In this document: piece by piece, positions 48,556-57,150 of the stretch
Position numbering within the stretch: the first letter of the stretch is position 1
How the letters are laid out: each line of letters starts with the position of its first letter
Origin: a virus
Lineage: Duplodnaviria > Caudoviricetes
Virus record (IMG/VR): IMGVR_UViG_3300037466_003648
Span: 32,001 to 96,000 of that record
Length of the DNA stretch: 64,000 bases
Direction: 5' to 3' (one strand)
Notes under the pieces: model-generated
The model's input: the letters and a program-made list of their open reading frames with translations, nothing else
Database searches by the model: none
Told to the model about the DNA's origin: nothing
Program-made: the position numbers and the translations under genes

Positions 48556-49329
48556 GTGGAGCGCCGCATCCTCAACGTCAAGCTCACACCGCCCTCGCCC
48601 GAGAAGATCGAGGGGCTGCACAAACAGCTGGACCTGCGCATCGCGAGTCCTGCCCTGTCGGTCGACCTGCGCTCCAAGTGCCCGGCGATCTATGACCAGG
48701 GCTACCTGGGCAGCTGCACCGGCTTCGCGTCGGCCAAGGGCTTGCGCGAGATCCTGGACTTGATCGAAGGTCGCCCGCACACCGAGTTCTCCGCGCTCTT
48801 CGCGTACTGGAACGAGCGGTCGGCCGAGAAGACCATCGACCACGATGCGGGCGCCCAGATCGTGGACGCCGTGGCGGTACTCCTGCACGAGGGCGCTTGC
48901 CCCGAGGCGCTGGACCCGTACGAGATCGGTGCCTTCCGTACCGCGCCGTCGCGGGAAGCCTTCGAGGCGGCCAAGGCGCACAAGGTGACCGACGCCACGC
49001 ACTTGCGGTCGGTCTCGACCCTCATCGATTGCCTCGCCAAGGGTTACCCGGTGATCGGTGGCATCCCGGTGTACGACGGTGACAACGGGTTGGAGAGTTC
49101 CCAAGCGCTGGTCTCCGGCAACGTGGGGATGCCCAACCCCGGCGACAACATCGCTGGTGGTCACGCTGTCGTGCTCGTGGGCTACGACCTGCGGTCGCGG
49201 ACCTTCTTGGTGCGCAATAGCTGGGGTAGCAACTGGGGTGACCGCGGCTACTTCCGTCTGCCTTTCGACTACGTCGAGCAGCTGGCGAACCCGGCCACCG
49301 GCGACTGGTGGACCGTCCGCATCTACTAG
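48556..49329 (+). CDS. C1 (papain-family) cysteine peptidase
   Basis: DQG-LGSC, GGHAV-LVGY, RNSWG--WG--GYF. Confidence 0.9.
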   Translation: MERRILNVKLTPPSPEKIEGLHKQLDLRIASPALSVDLRSKCPAIYDQGYLGSCTGFASAKGLREILDLIEGRPHTEFSALFAYWNERSAEKTIDHDAGAQIVDAVAVLLHEGACPEALDPYEIGAFRTAPSREAFEAAKAHKVTDATHLRSVSTLIDCLAKGYPVIGGIPVYDGDNGLESSQALVSGNVGMPNPGDNIAGGHAVVLVGYDLRSRTFLVRNSWGSNWGDRGYFRLPFDYVEQLANPATGDWWTVRIY

Positions 49330-49512
49330 ATGCTGGTCTGCTGCGAGACGCACGGAGTTCCCCTCCTGGACGGTGGTCCAGGAGGGCTCTTCTGTCCTGC
49401 CTGTGAGTACGAAGACGCACAGGCAGCCGAGTACGTGCCGTCCGACTTCAGCACCGTCCACCCCATCACCATGGAGACAAGTTTCAAGTATGCCATCATC
49501 GTCCGAGGCTGA
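49330..49512 (+). CDS. hypothetical Zn-ribbon protein
   Basis: CETH...CPAC. Confidence 0.55.
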   Translation: MLVCCETHGVPLLDGGPGGLFCPACEYEDAQAAEYVPSDFSTVHPITMETSFKYAIIVRG

Positions 49513-49789
49513 GTGCCAACACAACTGGGTCTCGTCGGGCGAAGCCTTCATGACGAGTGACCCCGTGCACACGGTGTTCTGCACCAAGTGCGATGCACTA
49601 GATAACCGCTATCGTCAGAGCCTGGGCAACTTCACGATAGATATGTCCGCCACGGTAACCGAGATGCGTAAGCGCGGTGGCGTCTGGACGAGCACCGCGG
49701 ACTACCTGGAGAACAACCTGAAGCTGAAGCGACCCTCGCTGTGGGAGTACCGCCGCTGGGTCGAGCCCGGCACCCGGAGCTTGTCATGA
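49490..49789 (+). CDS. hypothetical protein
   Basis: CQH...CTKC; ATGA coupling; start uncertain. Confidence 0.5.
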   Translation: MPSSSEAECQHNWVSSGEAFMTSDPVHTVFCTKCDALDNRYRQSLGNFTIDMSATVTEMRKRGGVWTSTADYLENNLKLKRPSLWEYRRWVEPGTRSLS

Positions 49790-50538
49790 GCCGCCCGCTG
49801 TTCTCCACGACCGACCTGCACGGCTGCTACGACGAGACCCTGCGCGCCTTCAACCAGGCAGGGTTGGTGGTCGGTGATCGCTGGGTAGCACCTGATGTTG
49901 ACCTGGTACTGCTGGGCGACTACATCGACCGTGGCCCCAAGTCCGCGCAGCTCATCGACATGCTGATCCGCTGGGAGGCAGAGGCCCAAGCTCTGGGTTC
50001 CATCTTCACCAAGCTCATGGGCAATCATGAGATGATGATGCTGACGGCGCCGCGGCAGGTGGAGATGGCCCAGCTCTGGCTGCAGCCACATGTGGGCGGT
50101 GTCGACACCCTGGAGTCCTACGGTGTCAAGCTGAGCTACCACCTCCGACCGTTCTACGAGCCGCGCTACACCAAGGCGATCATGAAGCGGCACAAGGAGT
50201 TCTTCCTGAGCCTCAAGAGCTATCACGTCCAGAACGACATTCTGTTCGTGCACGCGGGGCTGCCACCGGGGACGACCCGCGCGCAGATGGACATCGGTGT
50301 AGGCCACCTGTGGGTTCCCCGCAACCAGTGGGTCCACAACATCGACTACACCCGGTTGATCCAGGACTTTGGGGCTCACCGCATCGCGTTTGGTCACAGC
50401 ATCCTGTTCGAGGGTCCCGTCGAGTTCTACGGTATCGCCTTGAGCACGGACACCGGTAGCTACGAGCCCGAGGGCTGCGTCACCGTCGTTCACTACCCTT
50501 CCTCCGGCGGCTTCGTCGTCGCCGGTACCTCTCGATAG
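49786..50538 (+). CDS. metallophosphoesterase (lambda phosphatase/ApaH-like)
   Basis: DLHG, GDYIDRG, GNHE, HAG, FGHS. Confidence 0.9.
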   Translation: MSRPLFSTTDLHGCYDETLRAFNQAGLVVGDRWVAPDVDLVLLGDYIDRGPKSAQLIDMLIRWEAEAQALGSIFTKLMGNHEMMMLTAPRQVEMAQLWLQPHVGGVDTLESYGVKLSYHLRPFYEPRYTKAIMKRHKEFFLSLKSYHVQNDILFVHAGLPPGTTRAQMDIGVGHLWVPRNQWVHNIDYTRLIQDFGAHRIAFGHSILFEGPVEFYGIALSTDTGSYEPEGCVTVVHYPSSGGFVVAGTSR

Positions 50539-50546
50539 GAGACTTC

Positions 50547-51215
50547 ATGAACATCCAAGAGTACCAGCTTGCCGCCGAGAAGACCTCGCCCGCCTATGGG
50601 TTGGTGGCGACGCCCTTGTCGCGTGAAGTTGACGGTGTCATGGTCCTGCACTACGGCATCGTTCCTCGGGACCAGGGTGCGAGCCGCGCTGCCTGGCGTC
50701 TGGCGAACGGCATTGCCGGGCTGGGCTCCGAGTCCTGCGAGCTGGTTGCCTTGACCCTCGACTGGGACAACCAGTTCCCGGACCTGTCGACGATCACCGC
50801 GGCCGACGAGGAAGAGCTGGTCAACCTGGTCAAGAAGGAGTTGGGGGACATCGCCTGGTACATCGCGGAGTCCGCGAGCGCCATGGGCTTCAACCTCGGC
50901 GGCATCACGAACTGGTCGAACGTCCTCGTGGACCACTGTGACTGGGGTCTCAACGCCCTGCAGGTCGCCAAGTACGCGGGTGGGGCGGCCGACTACTTCA
51001 AGAAGCTGGCGTGGCACGACAAGACCATCGACTGGGCCACGGTCGAGAGCCACTTCGCCTGTGCGCTGGGGGCCATCGCCATCCTCGCGAAGACGCTGGG
51101 CTTCACGATCGAGGACGTCCTCGACGCCAACATCGCGAAGTTGTCCGTCCGCTACGAGAAGGGCTTCTCCGGCACCACTTCGGAAGCGCGAGTCGATCTC
51201 GCCGCGGGGGCTTGA
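50547..51215 (+). CDS. MazG-like NTP pyrophosphohydrolase (internally duplicated)
   Basis: EYQ-AA-KT, KKELGDIAWY, NIAKL-VRY. Confidence 0.8.
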   Translation: MNIQEYQLAAEKTSPAYGLVATPLSREVDGVMVLHYGIVPRDQGASRAAWRLANGIAGLGSESCELVALTLDWDNQFPDLSTITAADEEELVNLVKKELGDIAWYIAESASAMGFNLGGITNWSNVLVDHCDWGLNALQVAKYAGGAADYFKKLAWHDKTIDWATVESHFACALGAIAILAKTLGFTIEDVLDANIAKLSVRYEKGFSGTTSEARVDLAAGA

Positions 51216-51241
51216 CAACCAAGGGCACTTCCGCTTAGGAT
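51212..51241 (+). promoter_or_regulatory. sigma70-type promoter for small RNA 1
   Basis: TTGACA-18-TAGGAT. Confidence 0.7.
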
Positions 51242-51247
51242 GGACTT

Positions 51248-51352
51248 GCCCGTGCCAACTGGCGTCTGTGAGGGGTGTTCCCTGTCCCCAACAGTCCACC
51301 CCGTACACAGACGAGAATCGAGCCCCCGATGTCGCGATCGGGGGCTCTTCTC
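51248..51352 (+). ncRNA. candidate antisense sRNA (about 105 nt)
   Basis: own promoter; CGTCTGTG/CACAGACG hairpin with C-rich loop; terminator 51320-51352. Confidence 0.55.
51320..51352 (+). terminator. intrinsic terminator
   Basis: GAGCCCCCGAT-GTCGCG-ATCGGGGGCTC then TTCTC. Confidence 0.65.
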
Positions 51353-51373
51353 ATGGTGATCGATCCTAACCTC

Positions 51374-51403
51374 TTGACGGACGAGCCGGGGTCATGTTAG
51401 GGT
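51374..51403 (+). promoter_or_regulatory. sigma70-type promoter for RNA 2
   Basis: TTGACG-18-TAGGGT with TG. Confidence 0.6.
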
Positions 51404-51408
51404 AGGAT

Positions 51409-51635
51409 CATCTTGGCTCTGGTGGACTGTGGGGACAGGGAGACCAACCGAGATGAAGTCGAAGGGGCTTTATACGCCAGTTCTGCTTCCAGCGTAGGTA
51501 GCGCGTTACCTGCCGTGAACCTCCCCCTGCCTCACTCCGCTGTCGCCTCCGGGTCGATGGCTCTCCTGTGTTGTCTTAGTAAGACACCATTGGATCGGCA
51601 CGAGTGAACTAGGGGTAGGGGGACACGGTTGTTTT
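51409..51635 (+). ncRNA. structured RNA 2 with 14-codon mini-ORF (51453-51497) and long 3' rod
   Basis: rod CCGTG 51513/CACGG 51628 with nested helices, followed by TTGTTTT. Confidence 0.5.
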
Positions 51636-51686
51636 GGAAGTCTCAGCTAACATTACCGCCAGTTTGCGGGCGCGCGAAGAAAGTGC

Positions 51687-51716
51687 TTGACAGATCCGTT
51701 AGGGTCATGCTACTGT
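51687..51716 (+). promoter_or_regulatory. sigma70-type promoter of the tRNA array
   Basis: TTGACA-18-TACTGT with TG. Confidence 0.7.
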
Positions 51717-51722
51717 CACTTT

Positions 51723-51941
51723 CACCGGCTGAAAGAGCCGATCGACCGAAGGAGTTTCCTGTGTTTACGATGGGCAACCAGATTGAAGGAGCCGCCAGCG
51801 GCTCGAATCAGGTCTCGATCGTGACGGTCGATCCGAGCAACGCCGGGCGCCACCCGAAGTGAGTGGCAAGTAGGTCCAAGCCTACAAGGTTCCCGCCCGG
51901 CACCCAGGTCCAAGTGACCAACGGATGCCGGGCTTCTTCTT
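51723..51941 (+). promoter_or_regulatory. structured leader, candidate attenuator with 33-codon leader ORF (51761-51862)
   Basis: GAAGGAG SD; mutually exclusive helices 51842-49/51894-901 vs 51895-902/51926-33 plus TTCTTCTT. Confidence 0.5.
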
Positions 51942-51957
51942 GGGACAACAAGTTTGT

Positions 51958-52030
51958 GGCGGAGTGGGCCAGCGGCTACGCCGGGAGTCTCATAAGCTCC
52001 AGATCGAGGGTTCGAGTCCCTCCTCCGCCC
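51958..52030 (+). tRNA. tRNA-Met or Ile2 (CAT)
   Basis: cloverleaf; GGAGT-CTCATAA-GCTCC; TTCGAGT T-loop. Confidence 0.85.
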
Positions 52031-52061
52031 CCTAATCGTACCTTGACAACCTAACACACTA

Positions 52062-52153
52062 GGGCAGATGGTCGAGAGGCCGATGGCACCTGTTTCGAAA
52101 ACAGGAGGCCGGTGTAACAAGCCGGTCCGGGGGTTCGAATCCCTCTCTGCCCG
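52062..52153 (+). tRNA. tRNA-Ser (CGA)
   Basis: CCTGT-TTCGAAA-ACAGG; long V-arm; G73. Confidence 0.9.
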
Positions 52154-52161
52154 CTTAACTT

Positions 52162-52247
52162 GGGTGGTTGGCAGAGAGGCCGATCGCGCGACTTTGCTAA
52201 AGTCGTGACCTCTATGGGGTCCGTGGGTTCGACTCCCACACCACCCG
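52162..52247 (+). tRNA. tRNA-Ser (GCT)
   Basis: CGACT-TTGCTAA-AGTCG; long V-arm. Confidence 0.9.
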
Positions 52248-52250
52248 CCT

Positions 52251-52326
52251 TGGTCTGTAGCTCAACTAGCAGAGTGCTGGATTCTGACTCCAGAGGTTGC
52301 GGGTGCGAGTCCCGTCAGACCTGCCA
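52251..52326 (+). tRNA. tRNA-Gln (CTG)
   Basis: CTGGA-TTCTGAC-TCCAG; encoded CCA. Confidence 0.85.
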
Positions 52327-52331
52327 TCAAT

Positions 52332-52404
52332 GGTCCTATCGTTCAGAGGCCAAGGACGCCGCATTGTCAATGCGGTAACACGGGTTCGAATCCCGTTAGG
52401 ACCG
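52332..52404 (+). tRNA. tRNA-Asp (GTC)
   Basis: CCGCA-TTGTCAA-TGCGG. Confidence 0.9.
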
Positions 52405-52408
52405 CCTC

Positions 52409-52467
52409 GGGCATCGCCTACCCAGACCGTGGTGACGCGGCGTAAGTAGGAGCAACGGTGTCCACCA
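52409..52467 (+). ncRNA. armless tRNA-like minihelix with G3:U70 and ACCA end
   Basis: GGGCATC/GGTGTCC 7-bp stem plus A73 and CCA; no D or T arm. Confidence 0.6.
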
Positions 52468-52471
52468 ATAT

Positions 52472-52544
52472 GCGCGTGGAGCTGGGTTGGTTCAGCGCCG
52501 CCTTGCCAAGGCGGAGTCCACGGGTTCGATCCCCGTTACGCGCT
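52472..52544 (+). tRNA. tRNA-Gly (GCC)
   Basis: CCGCC-TTGCCAA-GGCGG; U73. Confidence 0.9.
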
Positions 52545-52549
52545 CTCAT

Positions 52550-52621
52550 TGCTACGTAGCACAGCGGTAGTGCGGCGCACTGTTAATGCGAAGGTCGCTG
52601 GTTCGATCCCAGCCGTAGCAG
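52550..52621 (+). tRNA. tRNA-Asn (GTT)
   Basis: CGCA-CTGTTAA-TGCG; G73. Confidence 0.9.
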
Positions 52622-52626
52622 CCTAT

Positions 52627-52698
52627 GCCCCAGTAGCTCAATGGCAGAGCGTCTGCCTTTGGAGCAGATGGTTGTCCGTTCAAGTCGGACCTGGGGTT
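52627..52698 (+). tRNA. tRNA-Gln (TTG)
   Basis: TCTGC-CTTTGGA-GCAGA. Confidence 0.85.
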
Positions 52699-52709
52699 CT
52701 CAAGTTCCT

Positions 52710-52782
52710 GGTGATGTAGCTCAACAGGTAGAGCAAGCTCTTGATAAGGGCTAGGTCGGAGGTTCGAGTCCTCCCGTCACCA
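52710..52782 (+). tRNA. tRNA-Ile (GAT)
   Basis: AGCTC-TTGATAA-GGGCT; A73. Confidence 0.9.
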
Positions 52783-52792
52783 CCTCAAGACG

Positions 52793-52925
52793 GTCGCGGG
52801 TAGCCAAATGGGTTTAAAAGTACCCGGCGGACGAGCGGCTGGTGTTCCTACGGGACCCGGTCATCCGCCTCGACGGTCTGATCTAGCGGAAGGACGCTCC
52901 GCAAGTGGGTGAGAATCCCACACCC
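52793..52925 (+). ncRNA. unassigned structured RNA (junction plus T-arm-like hairpin)
   Basis: GTCG/CGAC, GGGTA/TACCC and GGCGGA/TCCGCC helices; GTGGG-TGAGAAT-CCCAC. Confidence 0.45.
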
Positions 52926-52928
52926 TTT

Positions 52929-52999
52929 GGGTCTATAGCTCAATGGCAGAGCTGCCGACTCTTAATCGGTAGATCAGAGTTCGACTCTCTGTGGACCCA
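52929..52999 (+). tRNA. tRNA-Lys (CTT)
   Basis: GCCGA-CTCTTAA-TCGGT. Confidence 0.9.
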
Positions 53000-53003
53000 C
53001 TCC

Positions 53004-53075
53004 GCCGGTGTGGCTCAATGGTACAGCAGTTGATTTGTAATCAACCACCTCTCGGTTCAAGTCCGGGTACCGGCA
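53004..53075 (+). tRNA. tRNA-Thr (TGT)
   Basis: GTTGA-TTTGTAA-TCAAC. Confidence 0.9.
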
Positions 53076-53088
53076 TCGCACAGTTCTC

Positions 53089-53161
53089 GCTGGTGTAGCT
53101 CAGTTGGTAGAGCGGCTGCTTCGTAAGCAGCGGGTCACGAGTTCGATTCTTGTCACCAGCA
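53089..53161 (+). tRNA. tRNA-Thr (CGT)
   Basis: GCTGC-TTCGTAA-GCAGC. Confidence 0.9.
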
Positions 53162-53166
53162 CCTAC

Positions 53167-53238
53167 GGTCGTCTGGCGCAACGGTGGCGCGGCTCCTTTA
53201 CACGGAGAGGGTTCAGGGTTCGAGTCCCTGGATGACCA
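53167..53238 (+). tRNA. tRNA-Val (TAC)
   Basis: CTCC-TTTACAC-GGAG. Confidence 0.88.
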
Positions 53239-53242
53239 CTAA

Positions 53243-53314
53243 CGGAATGTACGCAAGGGGTATGCGGTCTGCTTTGGGAGCAGGAAGTCGGGGGTTCAAA
53301 TCCCTCCATTCCGA
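53243..53314 (+). tRNA. tRNA-Pro (TGG)
   Basis: TCTGC-TTTGGGA-GCAGG; CGG start, A73. Confidence 0.9.
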
Positions 53315-53319
53315 CCTTT

Positions 53320-53401
53320 GGGGGTATAAGGGCTGTCGATTCGGTGAAAGCCCCATGCGGGAACGCCGAAGACCTGGGTTCAATTCCCAGTACCTCCACC
53401 A
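53320..53401 (+). ncRNA. ssrA-like: tmRNA tRNA-like domain only (no mRNA-like domain), 82 nt
   Basis: GGGGGTA/TACCTCC with G3:U70, A73-CCA; stemless D-loop ending TCGA; helix TTCGGT/GCCGAA; GAC linker; CTGGG-TTCAATT-CCCAG T-arm. Confidence 0.8.
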
Positions 53402-53545
53402 ACGACAGGGGCAACAAGGTGACCTGACCTTCCCCTACGCACCGCTCAAGGCCGTGTGGTTACAGGTGACGCTCGGGAGAGGACACCCGCTGATGGCTTG
53501 CCTCGCGGACACCGGGTGACAGTCGGGAATAGACCGGCACCTTTC
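53402..53545 (+). ncRNA. unassigned structured RNA downstream of mini-tmRNA
   Basis: AGGGG/CCCCT and AAGGT/ACCTT hairpin; 3' GGTG-GTC-GGGAATA-GAC-CACC hairpin. Confidence 0.35.
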
Positions 53546-53547
53546 AC

Positions 53548-53619
53548 GCCCGTTCAGCTCGTCGGTCGAGCATCTCCTTGACATGGAGAAGGCGGCTGGT
53601 TCAACTCCAGCAACGGGCT
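53548..53619 (+). tRNA. tRNA-Val (GAC)
   Basis: TCTCC-TTGACAT-GGAGA. Confidence 0.88.
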
Positions 53620-53625
53620 CTACAC

Positions 53626-53701
53626 GCCGTGACAGTCTGACTGGACAGATCTCTGGCCTTCATCCAGAGGGAAGCGGGTTCGAGTCCCGCACGCGGCACC
53701 A
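53626..53701 (+). tRNA. tRNA-Glu (TTC), C33 variant
   Basis: TCTGG-CCTTCAT-CCAGA; encoded CCA. Confidence 0.75.
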
Positions 53702-53713
53702 TCAACAAATCAT

Positions 53714-53788
53714 GCCCCGGCAGACTGCTCGGCAGGGTCGCCAGGTTCTCAACCTGGAGGTAGGTGGGTTCGAATCCCCCGCGGGGTG
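53714..53788 (+). tRNA. tRNA-Glu (CTC)
   Basis: CCAGG-TTCTCAA-CCTGG. Confidence 0.8.
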
Positions 53789-53793
53789 CCTTA

Positions 53794-53924
53794 GTCCTAC
53801 GTTAGCTTCAAGCCGTATCGAGAGGTGCGGACACCGCCTGGGTGACCAGGATAGTCGGTGGGTTAGAGCGACCCAGGATTCTGTGCCTGGGGAGGTTGTC
53901 GGTTCGAGTCCGGGGCGTAGGATA
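53794..53924 (+). ncRNA. tRNA-like RNA with 57-nt branched D-loop and 8-nt anticodon loop
   Basis: GTCCTACG/CGTAGGAT acceptor; GCTT/GAGC D-stem; CCCAGG-ATTCTGTG-CCTGGG; TTCGAGT T-loop. Confidence 0.7.
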
Positions 53925-53929
53925 CTAAC

Positions 53930-53996
53930 GGGAGATGGCAGATCCTTCCGATAGGCTGCAGGGCGGGCAACCGCCGTAAGTGCAAAACTGCCACCC
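53930..53996 (+). ncRNA. unassigned small structured RNA
   Basis: TGGCAG/CTGCCA, TGCA/TGCA, GGCGG-GCAA-CCGCC. Confidence 0.4.
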
Positions 53997-54002
53997 TTCA
54001 AT

Positions 54003-54075
54003 GCGGTAGTAGCTCAGTTGGCAGAGCGCGTGCCTTCCAAGCATGATGTCGCAGGTTCGAAGCCTGTCTACCGCA
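54003..54075 (+). tRNA. tRNA-Gly (TCC)
   Basis: CGTGC-CTTCCAA-GCATG. Confidence 0.9.
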
Positions 54076-54104
54076 CCTGGTCGTAGCAAGAGAAGGAGAT
54101 CGCC

Positions 54105-54266
54105 ATGGCACATTACAAGCGGAAGAAGCAGAAGGAACGGGTTCGTCGGACCAGCGGCTACGACACGGAGAAGGTCCGAGCCTCTTACCACGGATGGCAC
54201 GCCTTGCTGCCTGCCATCCGTCTGCAGATGATCAAGGTCAAGGAAGAGCTGCGCGACGCAGCGTAA
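54105..54266 (+). CDS. small basic protein (53 aa) inside tRNA array
   Basis: GAAGGAG RBS; MAHYKRKKQKERVRR... Confidence 0.65.
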   Translation: MAHYKRKKQKERVRRTSGYDTEKVRASYHGWHALLPAIRLQMIKVKEELRDAA

Positions 54267-54271
54267 GTTAT

Positions 54272-54411
54272 GGCCGGGTAGCTCAAGAGTAGAGCGCGAG
54301 CCTGATAAGCTCGTCTTCGTTGCGTAGTGGACACTGATCAACCACGGTAGCAACGAAGCGGTTGGAGGTCGCTCCTTCAACTGATGCCGGTGACGACTCC
54401 GGCCCTGGCCG
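54272..54411 (+). tRNA. tRNA-Ile(GAT)-like with 72-nt two-hairpin variable region
   Basis: CGAGC-CTGATAA-GCTCG; insert 54314-54385; 8-nt T-loop; G73. Confidence 0.7.
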
Positions 54412-54426
54412 CCCTTCACAACATCT

Positions 54427-54499
54427 GGGCCTGTAGCTCCAATGGTAGAGCAGCTCCTTTGCAAGGAAAGGGTTGGCGGTTCGAGTCCGCCCAGGTCCA
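54427..54499 (+). tRNA. tRNA-Ala (TGC)
   Basis: TTTGCAA loop; G3:U70; A73. Confidence 0.9.
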
Positions 54500-54501
54500 C
54501 T

Positions 54502-54607
54502 GGTTCTCACGACGTCCCGTGAACCTTGTTCGAACTGTTGCAACAGTTCGAACAAGGGTAGATGACAGGGATCAAAGCGCTGAAAGGTAAGCCGCGTCGT
54601 GAGAACC
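54502..54607 (+). repeat. element bounded by 13-bp inverted repeats, containing a perfect 34-bp palindrome (54524-54557)
   Basis: GGTTCTCACGACG/CGTCGTGAGAACC; CCTTGTTCGAACTGTTGCAACAGTTCGAACAAGG. Confidence 0.85.
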
Positions 54608-54613
54608 GCCCTT

Positions 54614-54686
54614 GGTCGGGTAGCTCCAACGGTAGAGCAGGCGCCTGAAAAGTGCCGTGTTGTCGGTTCGAGTCCGACCCCGACCA
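54614..54686 (+). tRNA. tRNA-Phe (GAA)
   Basis: GGCGC-CTGAAAA-GTGCC. Confidence 0.9.
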
Positions 54687-54703
54687 CTCTTTTGATCCAG
54701 GGG

Positions 54704-54733
54704 TTGACAGATCCCATCTATGTGTGTTAGGGT
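54704..54733 (+). promoter_or_regulatory. internal sigma70-type promoter in tRNA array
   Basis: TTGACA-18-TAGGGT with TG. Confidence 0.65.
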
Positions 54734-54742
54734 TGTCCAACT

Positions 54743-54850
54743 ATGAACGCCGTGATCGCCAACTTGCTGTTGCTAGCCCTGCCGGTTGCAGGGTATCGAC
54801 GCTGGCGACATTCTTCTTGCGGCGGTCGACTTACCCTGCATCTGGCGTAA
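54743..54850 (+). CDS. possible leaderless 35-aa hydrophobic peptide (or structured RNA)
   Basis: MNAVIANLLLLALPVAGYRRWRH...; ATG at predicted TSS; also a strong hairpin. Confidence 0.35.
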   Translation: MNAVIANLLLLALPVAGYRRWRHSSCGGRLTLHLA

Positions 54851-54867
54851 CCTCTTCACTCCTTTCT

Positions 54868-54950
54868 CGGGACGTGGCGAAATGGCAGATGCGCCTGGCT
54901 CAGAACCAGGTGGGCGAAAGCCCGTGGGAGTTCGACTCTCCCCGTCCCGA
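54868..54950 (+). tRNA. tRNA-Leu (CAG)
   Basis: CCTGG-CTCAGAA-CCAGG; V-arm. Confidence 0.9.
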
Positions 54951-54954
54951 CTCT

Positions 54955-55037
54955 GCGGATGTGGCGTAATGGCAGATGCGCACGCCTGAGTAGCGTGTGA
55001 GCGTAAGCTCGTGTGAGTTCGAGTCTCACCGTCCGCA
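54955..55037 (+). tRNA. tRNA-Leu (GAG)
   Basis: CACGC-CTGAGTA-GCGTG; V-arm. Confidence 0.9.
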
Positions 55038-55043
55038 CTACAA

Positions 55044-55126
55044 GTCGGGATGATGAAATGGCAGCCTTGGTGGTCTCAAAAACCGCTGTCCGTAAGGACG
55101 TGGGGGTTCGACTCCCCCTCCCGGCA
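55044..55126 (+). tRNA. tRNA-Leu (CAA)
   Basis: GTGGT-CTCAAAA-ACCGC; V-arm. Confidence 0.9.
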
Positions 55127-55149
55127 CTCTTCCAGTACCTTGACAATCT

Positions 55150-55224
55150 GTGCCCGCAGCTCGATGGACGAGCACTCCCCTCCGAAGGGAGCGGTTGCGC
55201 GTTCGAGTCGCGCCGGGCACGCCA
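55150..55224 (+). tRNA. tRNA-Arg (CCG)
   Basis: CTCCC-CTCCGAA-GGGAG; encoded CCA. Confidence 0.9.
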
Positions 55225-55225
55225 T

Positions 55226-55298
55226 GTGCGTGTAGTTCAAACGGAAGAACGTCGGCCTCCTAAGCTGACGGTTGCTGGTTCGAGTCCAGCCGCGCACT
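55226..55298 (+). tRNA. tRNA-Arg (CCT)
   Basis: TCGGC-CTCCTAA-GCTGA. Confidence 0.9.
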
Positions 55299-55302
55299 CT
55301 AA

Positions 55303-55375
55303 GCCCGCATAGCTCAATTGGACAGAGCACTGGTCTACGAAGCCGGGGACGTAGGTTCGACTCCTACTGTGGGTG
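55303..55375 (+). tRNA. tRNA-Arg (ACG)
   Basis: CTGGT-CTACGAA-GCCGG. Confidence 0.9.
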
Positions 55376-55379
55376 CTGT

Positions 55380-55451
55380 GGTGACTGTAGGCTAACGGTA
55401 AGCCGCCTGATTGTGGATCAGGTGATGCGGGTTCGATCCCCGTCAGTCACA
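55380..55451 (+). tRNA. tRNA-His (GTG)
   Basis: CCTGA-TTGTGGA-TCAGG; G at -1. Confidence 0.88.
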
Positions 55452-55456
55452 CCTAT

Positions 55457-55537
55457 GCCAGTATGGGTGAGTAGCAATACCGGCTGCCTGTAAAGCAGCT
55501 CCCTCTGGGTTCCCTGGTGCAAGTCCAGGTGCTGGCA
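55457..55537 (+). tRNA. tRNA-Tyr (GTA)
   Basis: GCTGC-CTGTAAA-GCAGC; V-arm. Confidence 0.88.
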
Positions 55538-55543
55538 CTCCAT

Positions 55544-55614
55544 CTACCGGTAGCCAAGTAGTAAGGTAGCGGTCTGCAAAACCGCCAGCGTGGGTGCGAT
55601 TCCCACCCGGTAGT
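55544..55614 (+). tRNA. tRNA-Cys (GCA)
   Basis: GCGGT-CTGCAAA-ACCGC; U73. Confidence 0.9.
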
Positions 55615-55618
55615 CTCT

Positions 55619-55690
55619 GCGTCGTAAAGATTACGGTAGTCGGCTGGTCTCCAAAACCAGCAGCGGTGGGTTCGACTCCCCCACGATGCG
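55619..55690 (+). tRNA. tRNA-Trp (CCA)
   Basis: CTGGT-CTCCAAA-ACCAG; G73. Confidence 0.9.
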
Positions 55691-55697
55691 CTCTCTT

Positions 55698-55781
55698 GGT
55701 TGGTAGGGTTCAGTGGTGAGCACCACCGTCGGAAGCGGTGGCCGGGTGTCACAGCCTTCGGTTCGACTCCGATGCCAACCG
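55698..55781 (+). tRNA. tRNA-Ser (GGA), C33 variant
   Basis: CACCG-TCGGAAG-CGGTG; V-arm; G73. Confidence 0.8.
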
Positions 55782-55791
55782 CCTCATCCCC

Positions 55792-55821
55792 TTGCACAAG
55801 CTCCTATGGATCGGGTACAGT
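55792..55821 (+). promoter_or_regulatory. sigma70-type promoter
   Basis: TTGCAC-18-TACAGT. Confidence 0.5.
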
Positions 55822-55849
55822 AGTGCCATAATCCATAGGAGCTTTTGCT

Positions 55850-56155
55850 ATGTCAACACTCAGTCCCGAAGTCCAACGCGTGATGCGCAAGATTGCAACC
55901 GACTTGGCGATCGCCGCCCAGGCGTTCAGCAAGCCAGCCGATCCTAAGGTTACCCGCGAGACGTACGCCCTGATGTACTTCCGCTACCATTTCCCGGAGA
56001 TCACCCTGCAGGACATTCGTGATCCGCGAGTGACCCTCACCGACAGTACCATCTCGTACGACAGCGACTGGCTCAACGAGCTGCGCGTGCGTCACGGGAT
56101 GCCGCCGTTCGAGTTCCAGCCACCTGCTGTGTGGGCGGAGTTCAAAGTCAACTAG
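55850..56155 (+). CDS. hypothetical protein
   Basis: AGGAG RBS. Confidence 0.7.
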   Translation: MSTLSPEVQRVMRKIATDLAIAAQAFSKPADPKVTRETYALMYFRYHFPEITLQDIRDPRVTLTDSTISYDSDWLNELRVRHGMPPFEFQPPAVWAEFKVN

Positions 56156-56163
56156 GAGGACCC

Positions 56164-56508
56164 ATGGACATCGGCGGGTATAGCCACCCCAAAGCTCGCA
56201 AGCAGCACGTCTGCTACATCTGTAGCACGTTCATCGAGGTGGGTGAGACCTACACCCGCTGTAAAGGTCTCTGGCAGGGTGAGTGGCAGAACTGGTGTGC
56301 CCACAAGATCTGTCTTGCCATCGAAGATGCCAGCCGCGACTGTTGCGACGACGAGTTGTCCCAGTTGGGGTGGTCGGAGTTGGTCGAGCTGTGTACCACG
56401 GAAGCCCATCTCTGCACCTTCCTCGAACGTTTCCCTCCCGAAGATGAGGAGCAAGCCAAGCTCGCTCACTTCCAAGCCAAGCATTTAGGAGCACGTCAGC
56501 ATGCCTAG
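56164..56508 (+). CDS. hypothetical protein (KARK-H-C-IC phage family-like)
   Basis: AGGAGG RBS; ARKQHVCYIC...I-VGETY. Confidence 0.7.
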   Translation: MDIGGYSHPKARKQHVCYICSTFIEVGETYTRCKGLWQGEWQNWCAHKICLAIEDASRDCCDDELSQLGWSELVELCTTEAHLCTFLERFPPEDEEQAKLAHFQAKHLGARQHA

Positions 56509-56932
56509 CGCCCTTCTCCCCATCAAGAACGACTACCACATCATGGGTCTGCGGGGCATCTTCCGCACCGAGATCAAGTTCGAGGAGAACCACGTCAACC
56601 TCACGATCAACAACGTCGAGGTCCAGCTGGCGCATCAAGGGCTGCAGGACATGCGCGCCATGGAGATGCGCTACCAGCTCGTGCGTGCCATCCACCAGAA
56701 CCAGGAGTTCACGATGTGCTACACGACGCCGGGCACCAAGAAGGTGGCCTCCACGGATGTCGTCGTGCGCGTGCTGCCCATCAAGCTCGGCTTCATCGAG
56801 ACGCCGCTTGCCAAGGCCAAGTCCTGGGTGCTGACTGCCTCCGTGGACGGCAAGGAGCAGGACTTCCTGGTGGAGAACATCCGGGGCACCTGGAACTACC
56901 TGATGCACGTCAAGCAGGAGGCCACCGCGTGA
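56501..56932 (+). CDS. hypothetical protein
   Basis: AGGAG RBS; strong GC3 bias. Confidence 0.7.
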   Translation: MPSALLPIKNDYHIMGLRGIFRTEIKFEENHVNLTINNVEVQLAHQGLQDMRAMEMRYQLVRAIHQNQEFTMCYTTPGTKKVASTDVVVRVLPIKLGFIETPLAKAKSWVLTASVDGKEQDFLVENIRGTWNYLMHVKQEATA

Positions 56933-57150
56933 CCGGCGCCTGGTGCAAGCACCCGCTCAGCTTGATCGAACACTATGTCCCCGACGCTGGCATGAAGCGC
57001 AAGAAGCTCAAGTCTCTTTGCAAAGAGGCAGAAGCTAACAACTGGCTGCTTGACGAGCAAGGCGCGGCACATTGCCGCGCTTGCGTCGACCTGATCACCA
57101 CCCACTACCAACAGCTCGACGCGCAGGCGTCGGAAAGGACTACCCCATGA
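56929..57150 (+). CDS. hypothetical Zn-binding protein
   Basis: GTGA coupling; CKH...HCRAC. Confidence 0.55.
   Translation: MTGAWCKHPLSLIEHYVPDAGMKRKKLKSLCKEAEANNWLLDEQGAAHCRACVDLITTHYQQLDAQASERTTP

Follow-up and report, generated by a model that had tools for sequence, protein, structure and literature searches.

A candidate leader-peptide transcription attenuator ahead of the first tRNA block in a phiCbK-like phage from soil

Introduction

In amino-acid operons, transcription is attenuated by leader peptides in systems such as trpL, hisL, leuL, thrL and the multivalent ilvGMEDA, and runs of regulatory codons typify trpL and hisL. T-box riboswitches, which control synthetase or amino-acid genes, bind uncharged tRNA directly and need no open reading frame (ORF). 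In E. coli pyrBI the leader ORF runs through the terminator hairpin, which is blocked by a close-following ribosome, and UTP is sensed via polymerase pausing. Most work on phage tRNAs has dealt with the reasons why they are carried, for instance codon bias or evasion of defences that cut tRNAs. The control of phages' own tRNA genes is, to our knowledge, largely unknown, and our full-text search of the literature turned up no report of phage tRNA genes being attenuated.

The nearest published regulated accessory tRNA array is the trn operon of Anabaena, which works by a different mechanism: its 26 tRNA genes are repressed by TrcR and induced by translational stress (PMC10272220). For Caulobacter phage phiCbK, the genome paper predicted terminators with TransTermHP, and Rfam found only tRNAs.

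Here we describe a locus in a 205,180-bp virus record with direct terminal repeats, of which we analysed bases 32001-96000 (64,000 nt, termed here the window). On balance, we favour the reading that the sequence upstream of the first tRNA block of this phiCbK-like soil phage encodes a ribosome-mediated (leader-peptide) transcription attenuator, an arrangement that would probably let the phage make tRNAs when ribosomes read slowly.

This putative attenuator, denoted here leader 1, resembles those of amino-acid operons in having a mini-ORF close behind the promoter, a putative antiterminator arm within the 3' end of that ORF and a mutually exclusive terminator-like hairpin with a U-rich tail, with the position of the ribosome as the proposed selector. 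Like the ilv and thr leaders, it would sense several amino acids in one leader. It differs from amino-acid operon attenuators in that it is phage-borne, would regulate tRNAs rather than biosynthetic enzymes, and lacks runs of regulatory codons. Like T-box riboswitches, leader 1 would report the status of tRNA through transcription attenuation; a T-box covariance model found no match in 49000-57000 (E up to 1) or in 51200-51960 (E up to 10). With the Anabaena trn operon the window has in common a long accessory tRNA array and, as we propose for the window, more transcription when translation is impaired; in Anabaena, however, the regulator is a ribbon-helix-helix DNA-binding repressor at the promoter, and not a leader ORF with a terminator (PMC10272220).

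Results

A distant relative of phiCbK with a two-block tRNA array

The virus record comes from soil and rhizosphere metagenomes, and the phage has a GC content of about 62%. One conserved protein of 684 residues is 52% identical to its counterpart in phiCbK and relatives, and no closer relative was found in the viral contig collection, where the best match is 55%. On these grounds we regard the phage as a distant relative of the phiCbK group, the Dolichocephalovirinae; its host is probably an alphaproteobacterium.

Between 51958 and 55783, ARAGORN identified 32 tRNA genes, which together serve all 20 amino acids; these genes, like all the features of the locus described below, lie on the plus strand of the window. 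A second promoter inside the array, at 54704, splits it into two blocks. Block 1 (51958-54687), presumed to be the regulated unit, contains 21 tRNAs for 15 amino acids (ARAGORN; Rfam), namely Met, Ser, Gln, Asp, Gly, Asn, Ile, Lys, Thr, Val, Pro, Glu, Leu(TAG), Ala and Phe, and also carries non-canonical RNAs and a 53-codon ORF. Block 2 (54868-55783) contains 11 tRNAs by ARAGORN: three each for Leu and Arg, and those for His, Tyr, Cys, Trp and Ser(GGA). Behind it lies the array-end terminator (55799-55852), a strong hairpin of -28 kcal/mol with a T-rich tail.

The 53-codon ORF (54105-54266) was considered as a third leader and ruled out: it has neither promoter nor terminator, does not match the tRNAs behind it, and its codon use is that of an ordinary gene. 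No run registered as RNA contains the leader, and four runs that were compared with the region cover no part of 51528-51978. One sequencing run labelled RNA-Seq, although probably of DNA, contains a contig identical to 52178-52375, and this bears on expression neither way.

Promoter and leader ORF

The last promoter ahead of block 1, which we denote P1 (51687-51716), consists of TTGACA (51687-92), an 18-nt spacer and TACTGT (51711-16), and would start transcription near 51723. Promoters of this class are rare: a scan for TTGAC(A/G/C)-N16-19-TAnnnT returned only 14 sites in the 205-kb genome, 13 of them on the coding strand. P1 and the promoter inside the array (P2) have the start TTGACAGATCC in common, and both are among the several of the 14 promoters in which GATC follows the -35 hexamer. 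Neither by eye nor in the scan could we recognise a promoter between the terminator-like hairpin described below and tRNA-Met.

The predicted 5' untranslated region (51723-51760) contains the Shine-Dalgarno sequence GAAGGAG at 51748-54, 6 nt before a GTG codon at 51761. This heptamer occurs 71 times in the genome and is followed at 4-9 nt by a start codon in 34 of these cases, 31 of which open a long ORF with gene-like codon use. The start site of the leader ORF therefore resembles those of genuine genes of the phage, which suggests that the ORF is translated. A perfect 9-bp long-range helix (51740-48 with 51825-33), found with a repeat/complement finder and by folding, surrounds the ribosome-binding site and most of the ORF.

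The leader 1 ORF itself (51761-51862) has 33 codons from GTG to the TGA stop at 51860-62; public gene callers choose an alternative ATG at 51770 as its start. Its GC3 is 0.82 and its codon log-likelihood +9 bits, as compared with -20 to -70 for neighbouring non-coding frames. The promoter and the ORF thus agree with the initial annotation, which had described a near-consensus promoter followed by a 33-codon frame behind GAAGGAG. The encoded peptide has no relatives among 1.8 billion representative proteins and belongs to no protein family, which would fit a leader peptide as well as an orphan gene.

The initial annotation had also spoken of "diverse codons" in this ORF. The codons are indeed varied, but they are better described as codons for the tRNAs that follow: 28 of the 33 are read by block-1 tRNAs, and 18 of the 21 block-1 tRNAs are represented. 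Such coverage has P = 0.03 relative to 33-codon windows of real genes and 0.005 relative to short ORFs, a suggestive match, qualified by the share of block 1 in all codon use (68%). At the amino-acid level, P is 0.015-0.04 for either leader (against phage protein windows and random draws), and about 0.03 for leader 1. Leu, Tyr, Cys and Trp are entirely missing from leader 1. Only two of its codons belong to block 2, a single Arg and a single His; they are codons 30-31, outside the zone in which a stall would favour read-through. Codons 1-22 are all for amino acids served by block 1. Altogether the leader samples about 14 amino acids, each with one to four codons that do not form runs.

Mutually exclusive helices and a terminator-like hairpin

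The 3' part of the leader contains three segments with two alternative pairings. Segment 2, GCCGGGCG (51842-51849), lies inside the ORF, 11-18 nt before the stop, and would serve as the 5' arm of an antiterminator; it is a perfect 8-bp complement of segment 3, CGCCCGGC at 51894-901. Shifted by one position, GCCCGGCA (51895-902) can instead pair with segment 4, TGCCGGGC (51926-33), to give a terminator-like hairpin (51894-51933) of -24 kcal/mol. At its base this hairpin has 8 bp rich in GC, topped by a structured apical part of 23 nt, and it is followed by the U-rich tail TTCTTCTT (51934-51941), 16 nt before tRNA-Met. Segment 2 is a near-copy of segment 4, and its pairing with segment 3 (51842-49/51894-901) excludes hairpin 3:4.

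Between segments 2 and 3, folding places two small hairpins that are possible pause hairpins: one (51849-67) spans the stop codon, and the other (51870-85) carries the first copy of the 9-mer AGGTCCAAG. The two copies of this 9-mer in the leader, at 51872-80 in the loop of hairpin 51870-85 and at 51906-14 in the apical part of hairpin 3:4, are part of a 16-nt direct repeat spaced 34 nt; in the whole genome the 9-mer occurs four times. Both pairings are located exactly where the initial annotation had placed them, and the 9-mer does occur twice, as it had stated.

Two features of hairpin 3:4 count against the attenuator, namely its long 23-nt apical part and the C-interrupted U tract. A consensus terminator scan omits it because the apical part exceeds the 8-nt loop limit of the tool. 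An identical TTCTTCTT tail is found behind the tight hairpin 37651-75 at the end of a 207-codon gene, and other clear terminators of this phage likewise have short, C-interrupted T tracts. These individual terminators were picked from a loose hairpin-plus-T scan, which was used for this purpose only since its matches were equally frequent on the two strands (40 and 41).

When the 133 nt upstream are shuffled with their dinucleotides preserved, an 8-nt complement to the 5' arm of the hairpin arises in 2% of cases and a duplex as stable as 2:3 in 5%. Folding z-scores are unremarkable (-2.66 for the whole leader, -1.46 for its 3' part), and Rfam scans placed no family on the leader (49000-57000, E up to 1; 51200-51960, E up to 10). 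The leader 1 statistics are each modest (P 0.005-0.05) and partly post hoc.

Ribosome position in folding models of leader 1

The 2:3 domain alone (51842-51901), which encloses the two small hairpins, folds with -29.7 kcal/mol. To mimic a ribosome, the transcript from the predicted start was folded, using the partition function, with a 28-nt stretch kept single-stranded. In an RNA that ends at 51925, where segment 4 is still absent, 2:3 formed with a probability of 0.81-0.88 if the ribosome was absent or had its P-site at codons 1-22, and of 0.00-0.01 for a P-site at codons 24-32. Once the RNA extends to 51941, however, hairpin 3:4 wins at equilibrium in every ribosome state. Any switch in leader 1 must therefore work only kinetically in these models, as in classical attenuators.

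These results bear on the initial annotation. That the ribosome selects the helix is borne out in the masked folding, where 2:3 is lost at codons 24-32 and kept at 1-22, but not at equilibrium, where the terminator always prevails. Folding of both conformers, a check that it had suggested, gives -42.9 kcal/mol for the terminator conformer of the whole 3' region and -37.3 kcal/mol for a forced antiterminator.

A 1:2 pairing of the kind that would give superattenuation (51725-29/51842-46) appears in the minimum-energy fold, but it has an ensemble probability of 0.00 and was dropped. Since no 1:2 pairing is predicted, the default of leader 1 in the absence of translation would be read-through, unlike in trpL.

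A second promoter and candidate leader inside the array

Promoter P2 (54704-54733), recovered in the promoter scan inside the array, consists of TTGACA, an 18-nt spacer and TAGGGT. An ATG only 9 nt past it suggests that the P2 message, with a predicted 5' end at about 54741, is leaderless. This ATG opens the ORF of candidate leader 2 (54743-54850), with 35 codons, which ends 17 nt before tRNA-Leu. Block-2 tRNAs read 18 of its 35 codons, and 9 of the 11 tRNAs and all 7 amino acids of block 2 are represented in it. For the tRNA coverage P is 0.009 against windows of real genes and 0.046 against short ORFs; for the number of block-2 codons it is 0.0006 against windows of real genes. Codon use in leader 2 is not gene-like (score -12.7, GC3 0.63, 13 rare codons), and this could be either a design for sensitivity or a sign that the frame is not translated.

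A long hairpin (54781-54846, -38.8 kcal/mol) lies inside the leader 2 ORF, whose stop codon is beyond it, and competes with a small hairpin at 54777-93. This is the ORF-through-hairpin geometry of pyrBI (for 54743-54850 as a whole), and if leader 2 worked in the pyrBI manner, slow decoding might mean less, not more, read-through. The evidence for leader 2 is weaker than that for leader 1.

The initial annotation had assigned control of the phage tRNA array to leader 1. The tRNAs do follow this leader, but with a second promoter at 54704 it probably governs block 1 only.

Attenuator-like cassettes in related phages

Searches for relatives of the leader itself returned little. There were none in megablast or blastn against phage records; protein-seeded scans of viral contigs with three flanking genes gave distant matches or none, a metagenome scan gave only distant MazG-like matches, and a protein word search found only the protein itself. 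A DNA search for the leader in five distant relatives hit only chance matches inside coding regions. Eight contigs represent strain variants that are identical or 0.5% diverged, with the only SNPs in the region at 51669 and 51718. In the 0.5%-diverged strain the ORF and helices of leader 1 are unchanged, and thus there is no covariation for leader 1.

As the leader has no close relative, we looked for the same architecture in distant ones. In phiCbK, predicted terminators are annotated directly ahead of tRNA blocks. In the cassette that we denote C, a TTGACA promoter, a 45-codon ORF and a terminator precede tRNAs for Pro (two), Lys (two), Leu (three) and Ser (two), and 23 of the 45 residues of the peptide are Pro, Lys, Leu or Ser (binomial P = 0.0002). 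Cassette D has a TTGACA-N17-TAGGGT promoter, an ATG 7 nt later, a 32-codon ORF that harbours a near-copy of the terminator's 3' arm, and the terminator; the ORF core reads Gln-Phe-Val-Arg-Gln-Ile-Gln-Val-Val, and the tRNAs behind the terminator are Phe, Val, Ile, Ile, Val, Gln and Gln. In cassette B the layout is present and the amino-acid enrichment absent (3 of 20, P = 0.39). In an uncultured 214-kb relative, only one terminator, a canonical one, precedes tRNAs, namely those for Asn, Met and Trp; it follows a 20-codon ORF whose peptide includes Trp, Asn twice and an internal Met.

A distant blastn search found the DNA of cassette D conserved in 48 records of Caulobacter and Brevundimonas phages, and in no other phages. 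We aligned it across ten diverse members of the Dolichocephalovirinae. Throughout this alignment the ORF stays open, with indels in multiples of three. In helices 1:2 and 3:4, pairing reaches 94% and 99%, and six pairs show changes in both partners; in helix 2:3 it reaches 97%, and three pairs show such changes. Pairing drops to 23-62% when the partners are slid by one to three columns. With an open ORF and compensatory changes in its helices, a four-segment leader-peptide attenuator ahead of tRNA genes is well supported in the phiCbK lineage.

The leaders of the window have no sequence homology to cassette D, with its Tyr-Arg-Gln-Phe-Val-type peptide and GGCCCGCC-based helices. The Dolichocephalovirinae cassettes (phiCbK, Rogue, CcrSC, Colossus and Brevundimonas phages) nevertheless have the same genomic role and layout as the window and also TTGACA-type promoters. 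As in leader 1, segment 2 of these cassettes lies within the ORF and nearly duplicates the 3' arm of the terminator, and P2 of the window shares with phiCbK cassette D both promoter hexamers and the leaderless geometry. Leader 1 differs from cassette D in having an untranslated region of 37 nt with a Shine-Dalgarno sequence in place of a leaderless start, and in that its helices lack the sequence variants needed for covariation; its block of 21 tRNAs is also much larger than those behind the Dolichocephalovirinae cassettes.

Discussion

We propose that host RNA polymerase would initiate at P1 and that the nascent leader would be translated from GTG 51761. Segments 2 (51842-49) and 3 (51894-901) are made ahead of segment 4 (51926-33), and they would pair first unless a ribosome covers segment 2. 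When decoding is fast, the ribosome would have arrived at codons 24-33 or at the stop while the polymerase is still within the hairpin region; segment 2 would then be masked, hairpin 3:4 would form, and transcription would end at the TTCTTCTT tract near 51941. With the ribosome absent, or lagging at codons 1-22, the 2:3 helix would persist and the polymerase would proceed into tRNA-Met and the 20 further tRNAs. As a result, tRNA supply would feed back negatively on transcription of the tRNA genes. What the analysis shows directly are the sequence elements, their energetics, the codon content and the conserved analogues in relatives; translation of the ORF, termination at 51941, the kinetic competition between helices and the physiological signal are steps that we infer.

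Several observations argue for this attenuator. P1 belongs to a rare, strand-biased promoter class and is the last promoter before the tRNAs. Ahead of block 2 there is a second unit of promoter and mini-ORF, which is enriched in block-2 codons (P 0.0006-0.05). By analogy, relatives with the same layout also point to it, including a cassette whose three helices are backed by compensatory changes. Against it stands the fact that each amino acid would be sensed through one to four codons scattered along the leader.

The main rival, which we consider unlikely but a serious competitor, is an ordinary small transcription unit in which P1 drives a gene of 30-33 codons or an sRNA that ends at a leaky terminator; the tRNAs would then be transcribed by constitutive read-through, and the pairing and codon content of the leader would be coincidental. 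The phage does have other short promoter-to-terminator units, one just upstream (51212-51352) and one for a paralogous RNA at 132.1 kb of the genome. A gene-end hairpin also lies directly ahead of the other small tRNA cluster, at 11.3 kb of the genome, and terminators with the next gene immediately behind occur elsewhere, for example at 37651-83. The statistics for the 2:3 pairing and the codon match, with P of only 0.005-0.05, leave room for coincidence. Against this rival stand the peptide without relatives in 1.8 billion representative proteins, a segment 2 that near-copies segment 4 exactly where a terminating ribosome would cover it, and the recurrence of the layout at P2 and, with covariation, in relatives.

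Two further readings dispense with the ribosome as selector. It is improbable that no termination takes place at all, the hairpins being structure in the 5' leader of a tRNA precursor that is removed by RNase P and the ORF a chance frame in GC-rich DNA. At 62% GC, open frames of this size abound, with 659 ORFs of 28-45 codons, the 3' part has a folding z-score of only -1.46, and the hairpin is missing from the consensus terminator scan; yet the strong, correctly spaced Shine-Dalgarno sequence and the gene-like GC3 speak for a translated frame, and the tail is common to the real terminator 37651-75, with analogues in relatives. Still less probable is factor-dependent antitermination, by which the two AGGUCCAAG copies would bind a phage or host RNA-binding protein or a small RNA, and the choice between hairpin 3:4 and read-through would be independent of the ribosome. 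This idea draws on the rarity of the 9-mer, with two of only four genomic copies in leader 1, in the loop of 51870-85 and in the apical part of hairpin 3:4. Such a repeat may, however, be no more than a remnant of the local duplication from which segments 3 and 4 arose; the motif is absent from the P2 leader, no candidate factor is known, and no complementary 9-mer was found in the neighbouring small RNAs.

The leader-peptide attenuator, which we prefer for leader 1, can be extended to a wider proposal: that the phiCbK lineage and its distant soil relatives control their tRNA blocks by leader-peptide attenuation, with the leader ORF as a test message made up of the codons that the downstream tRNAs read, so that tRNA transcription would follow the speed at which ribosomes decode. 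We see this general statement as evenly poised between right and wrong. In that reading the window would be the broadest example, with a 33-codon leader that samples 18 of 21 tRNAs and a second cassette for the other 11. That the purpose is to counter cleavage of host tRNAs is speculation.

If the attenuator is real, the phage would gauge decoding capacity directly and adjust its tRNA output to it, by means of a compact, portable sensor of tRNA availability; the classic logic of amino-acid control would then extend to the decoding machinery itself. For genome annotation, the lesson is not to write off as noise the tiny ORFs and "terminators" that sit oddly ahead of phage tRNA blocks.

RNA genes upstream of the tRNA array

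Upstream of P1, the TTGACA-type promoter that precedes the leader ORF and the first block of tRNAs, we found an RNA gene of about 280 nt (positions 51374−51682) that has a TTGAC-type promoter of its own. A second copy, a diverged paralogue, is present outside the window at genome coordinates 132,076−132,400 (numbered on the whole phage record), 48 kb from the local copy. A consensus fold is common to the two copies, and 15 of its 57 base pairs differ on both sides. At the distant site, a clean terminator closes the RNA gene and a membrane-protein gene comes next; the local copy lacks a terminator and continues directly into P1. The RNA gene had no match in Rfam.

This RNA gene is preceded by a short promoter-to-terminator unit located directly 3' of the MazG-like gene (51212−51352), with the promoter TTGACA-N18-TAGGAT and a terminator composed of a hairpin (51320−51347) and a TTCTC tail. 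The unit harbours a C-rich loop (51279−51300) that is complementary to positions 51421−51441, near the 5' end of the RNA transcribed from the next gene (51374−51682); the two segments form the inverted repeats I1 and I2.

Non-tRNA elements within the tRNA array

The tRNA array itself contains several elements that are not tRNAs. An 82-nt RNA at 53320−53401 matches the Rfam tmRNA model from end to end with 43 bits, a score just below the cut-off of that model. It has an acceptor stem with G3:U70 and an encoded CCA, and lacks the tag-coding part; judged by these features, it looks like a mini-tmRNA comprising the tRNA-like domain only. Further downstream, a 53-codon ORF (54105−54266) that has a strong AGGAG site and the codon use of a gene encodes a small, very basic protein, and 5 nt after it lies a weak tRNA-like match (54272−54350, 24.5 bits). 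The spacer between tRNA-Ala and tRNA-Phe (54503−54608) forms a single long nested hairpin that is nearly perfect. This spacer is the sole site in the region where the variant strain, which is 0.5% diverged, shows an indel or rearrangement, all other differences being point changes.

Other tRNA-associated sequences

A small additional tRNA cluster, with Phe, Asn and several tRNA-like stretches, is found 3' of a protein gene outside the window, at genome coordinates 11,250−12,100. Immediately 5' of its first tRNA there is a gene-end hairpin of 10 bp whose tail is TCCTCTTC, and the last ten codons of the preceding gene include two for Phe and one for Asn.

In cassette D, the promoter, mini-ORF and terminator unit of phiCbK-group phages, eight of the ten aligned phages carry AGGAG or a close variant just 3' of the terminator and, after a short spacer, an ATG at which another ORF begins. 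In six of these phages the ORF is tiny and comprises only four or five sense codons, as in Met-Asn-Asn-Gly-Gly; it is located upstream of the tRNAs and may be translated as a second element of the cassette.

We also noted that one unbroken 18-nt stretch of tRNA-Met (51968−51985), covering the D-arm and the first part of the anticodon stem, recurs as two pieces within the 33-codon leader ORF, at 51794−51803 and 51837−51847. The order of the pieces is kept, one being an exact 10-mer and the other identical at 10 of 11 positions. These repeats may reflect descent from a tRNA copy or may have arisen by chance.
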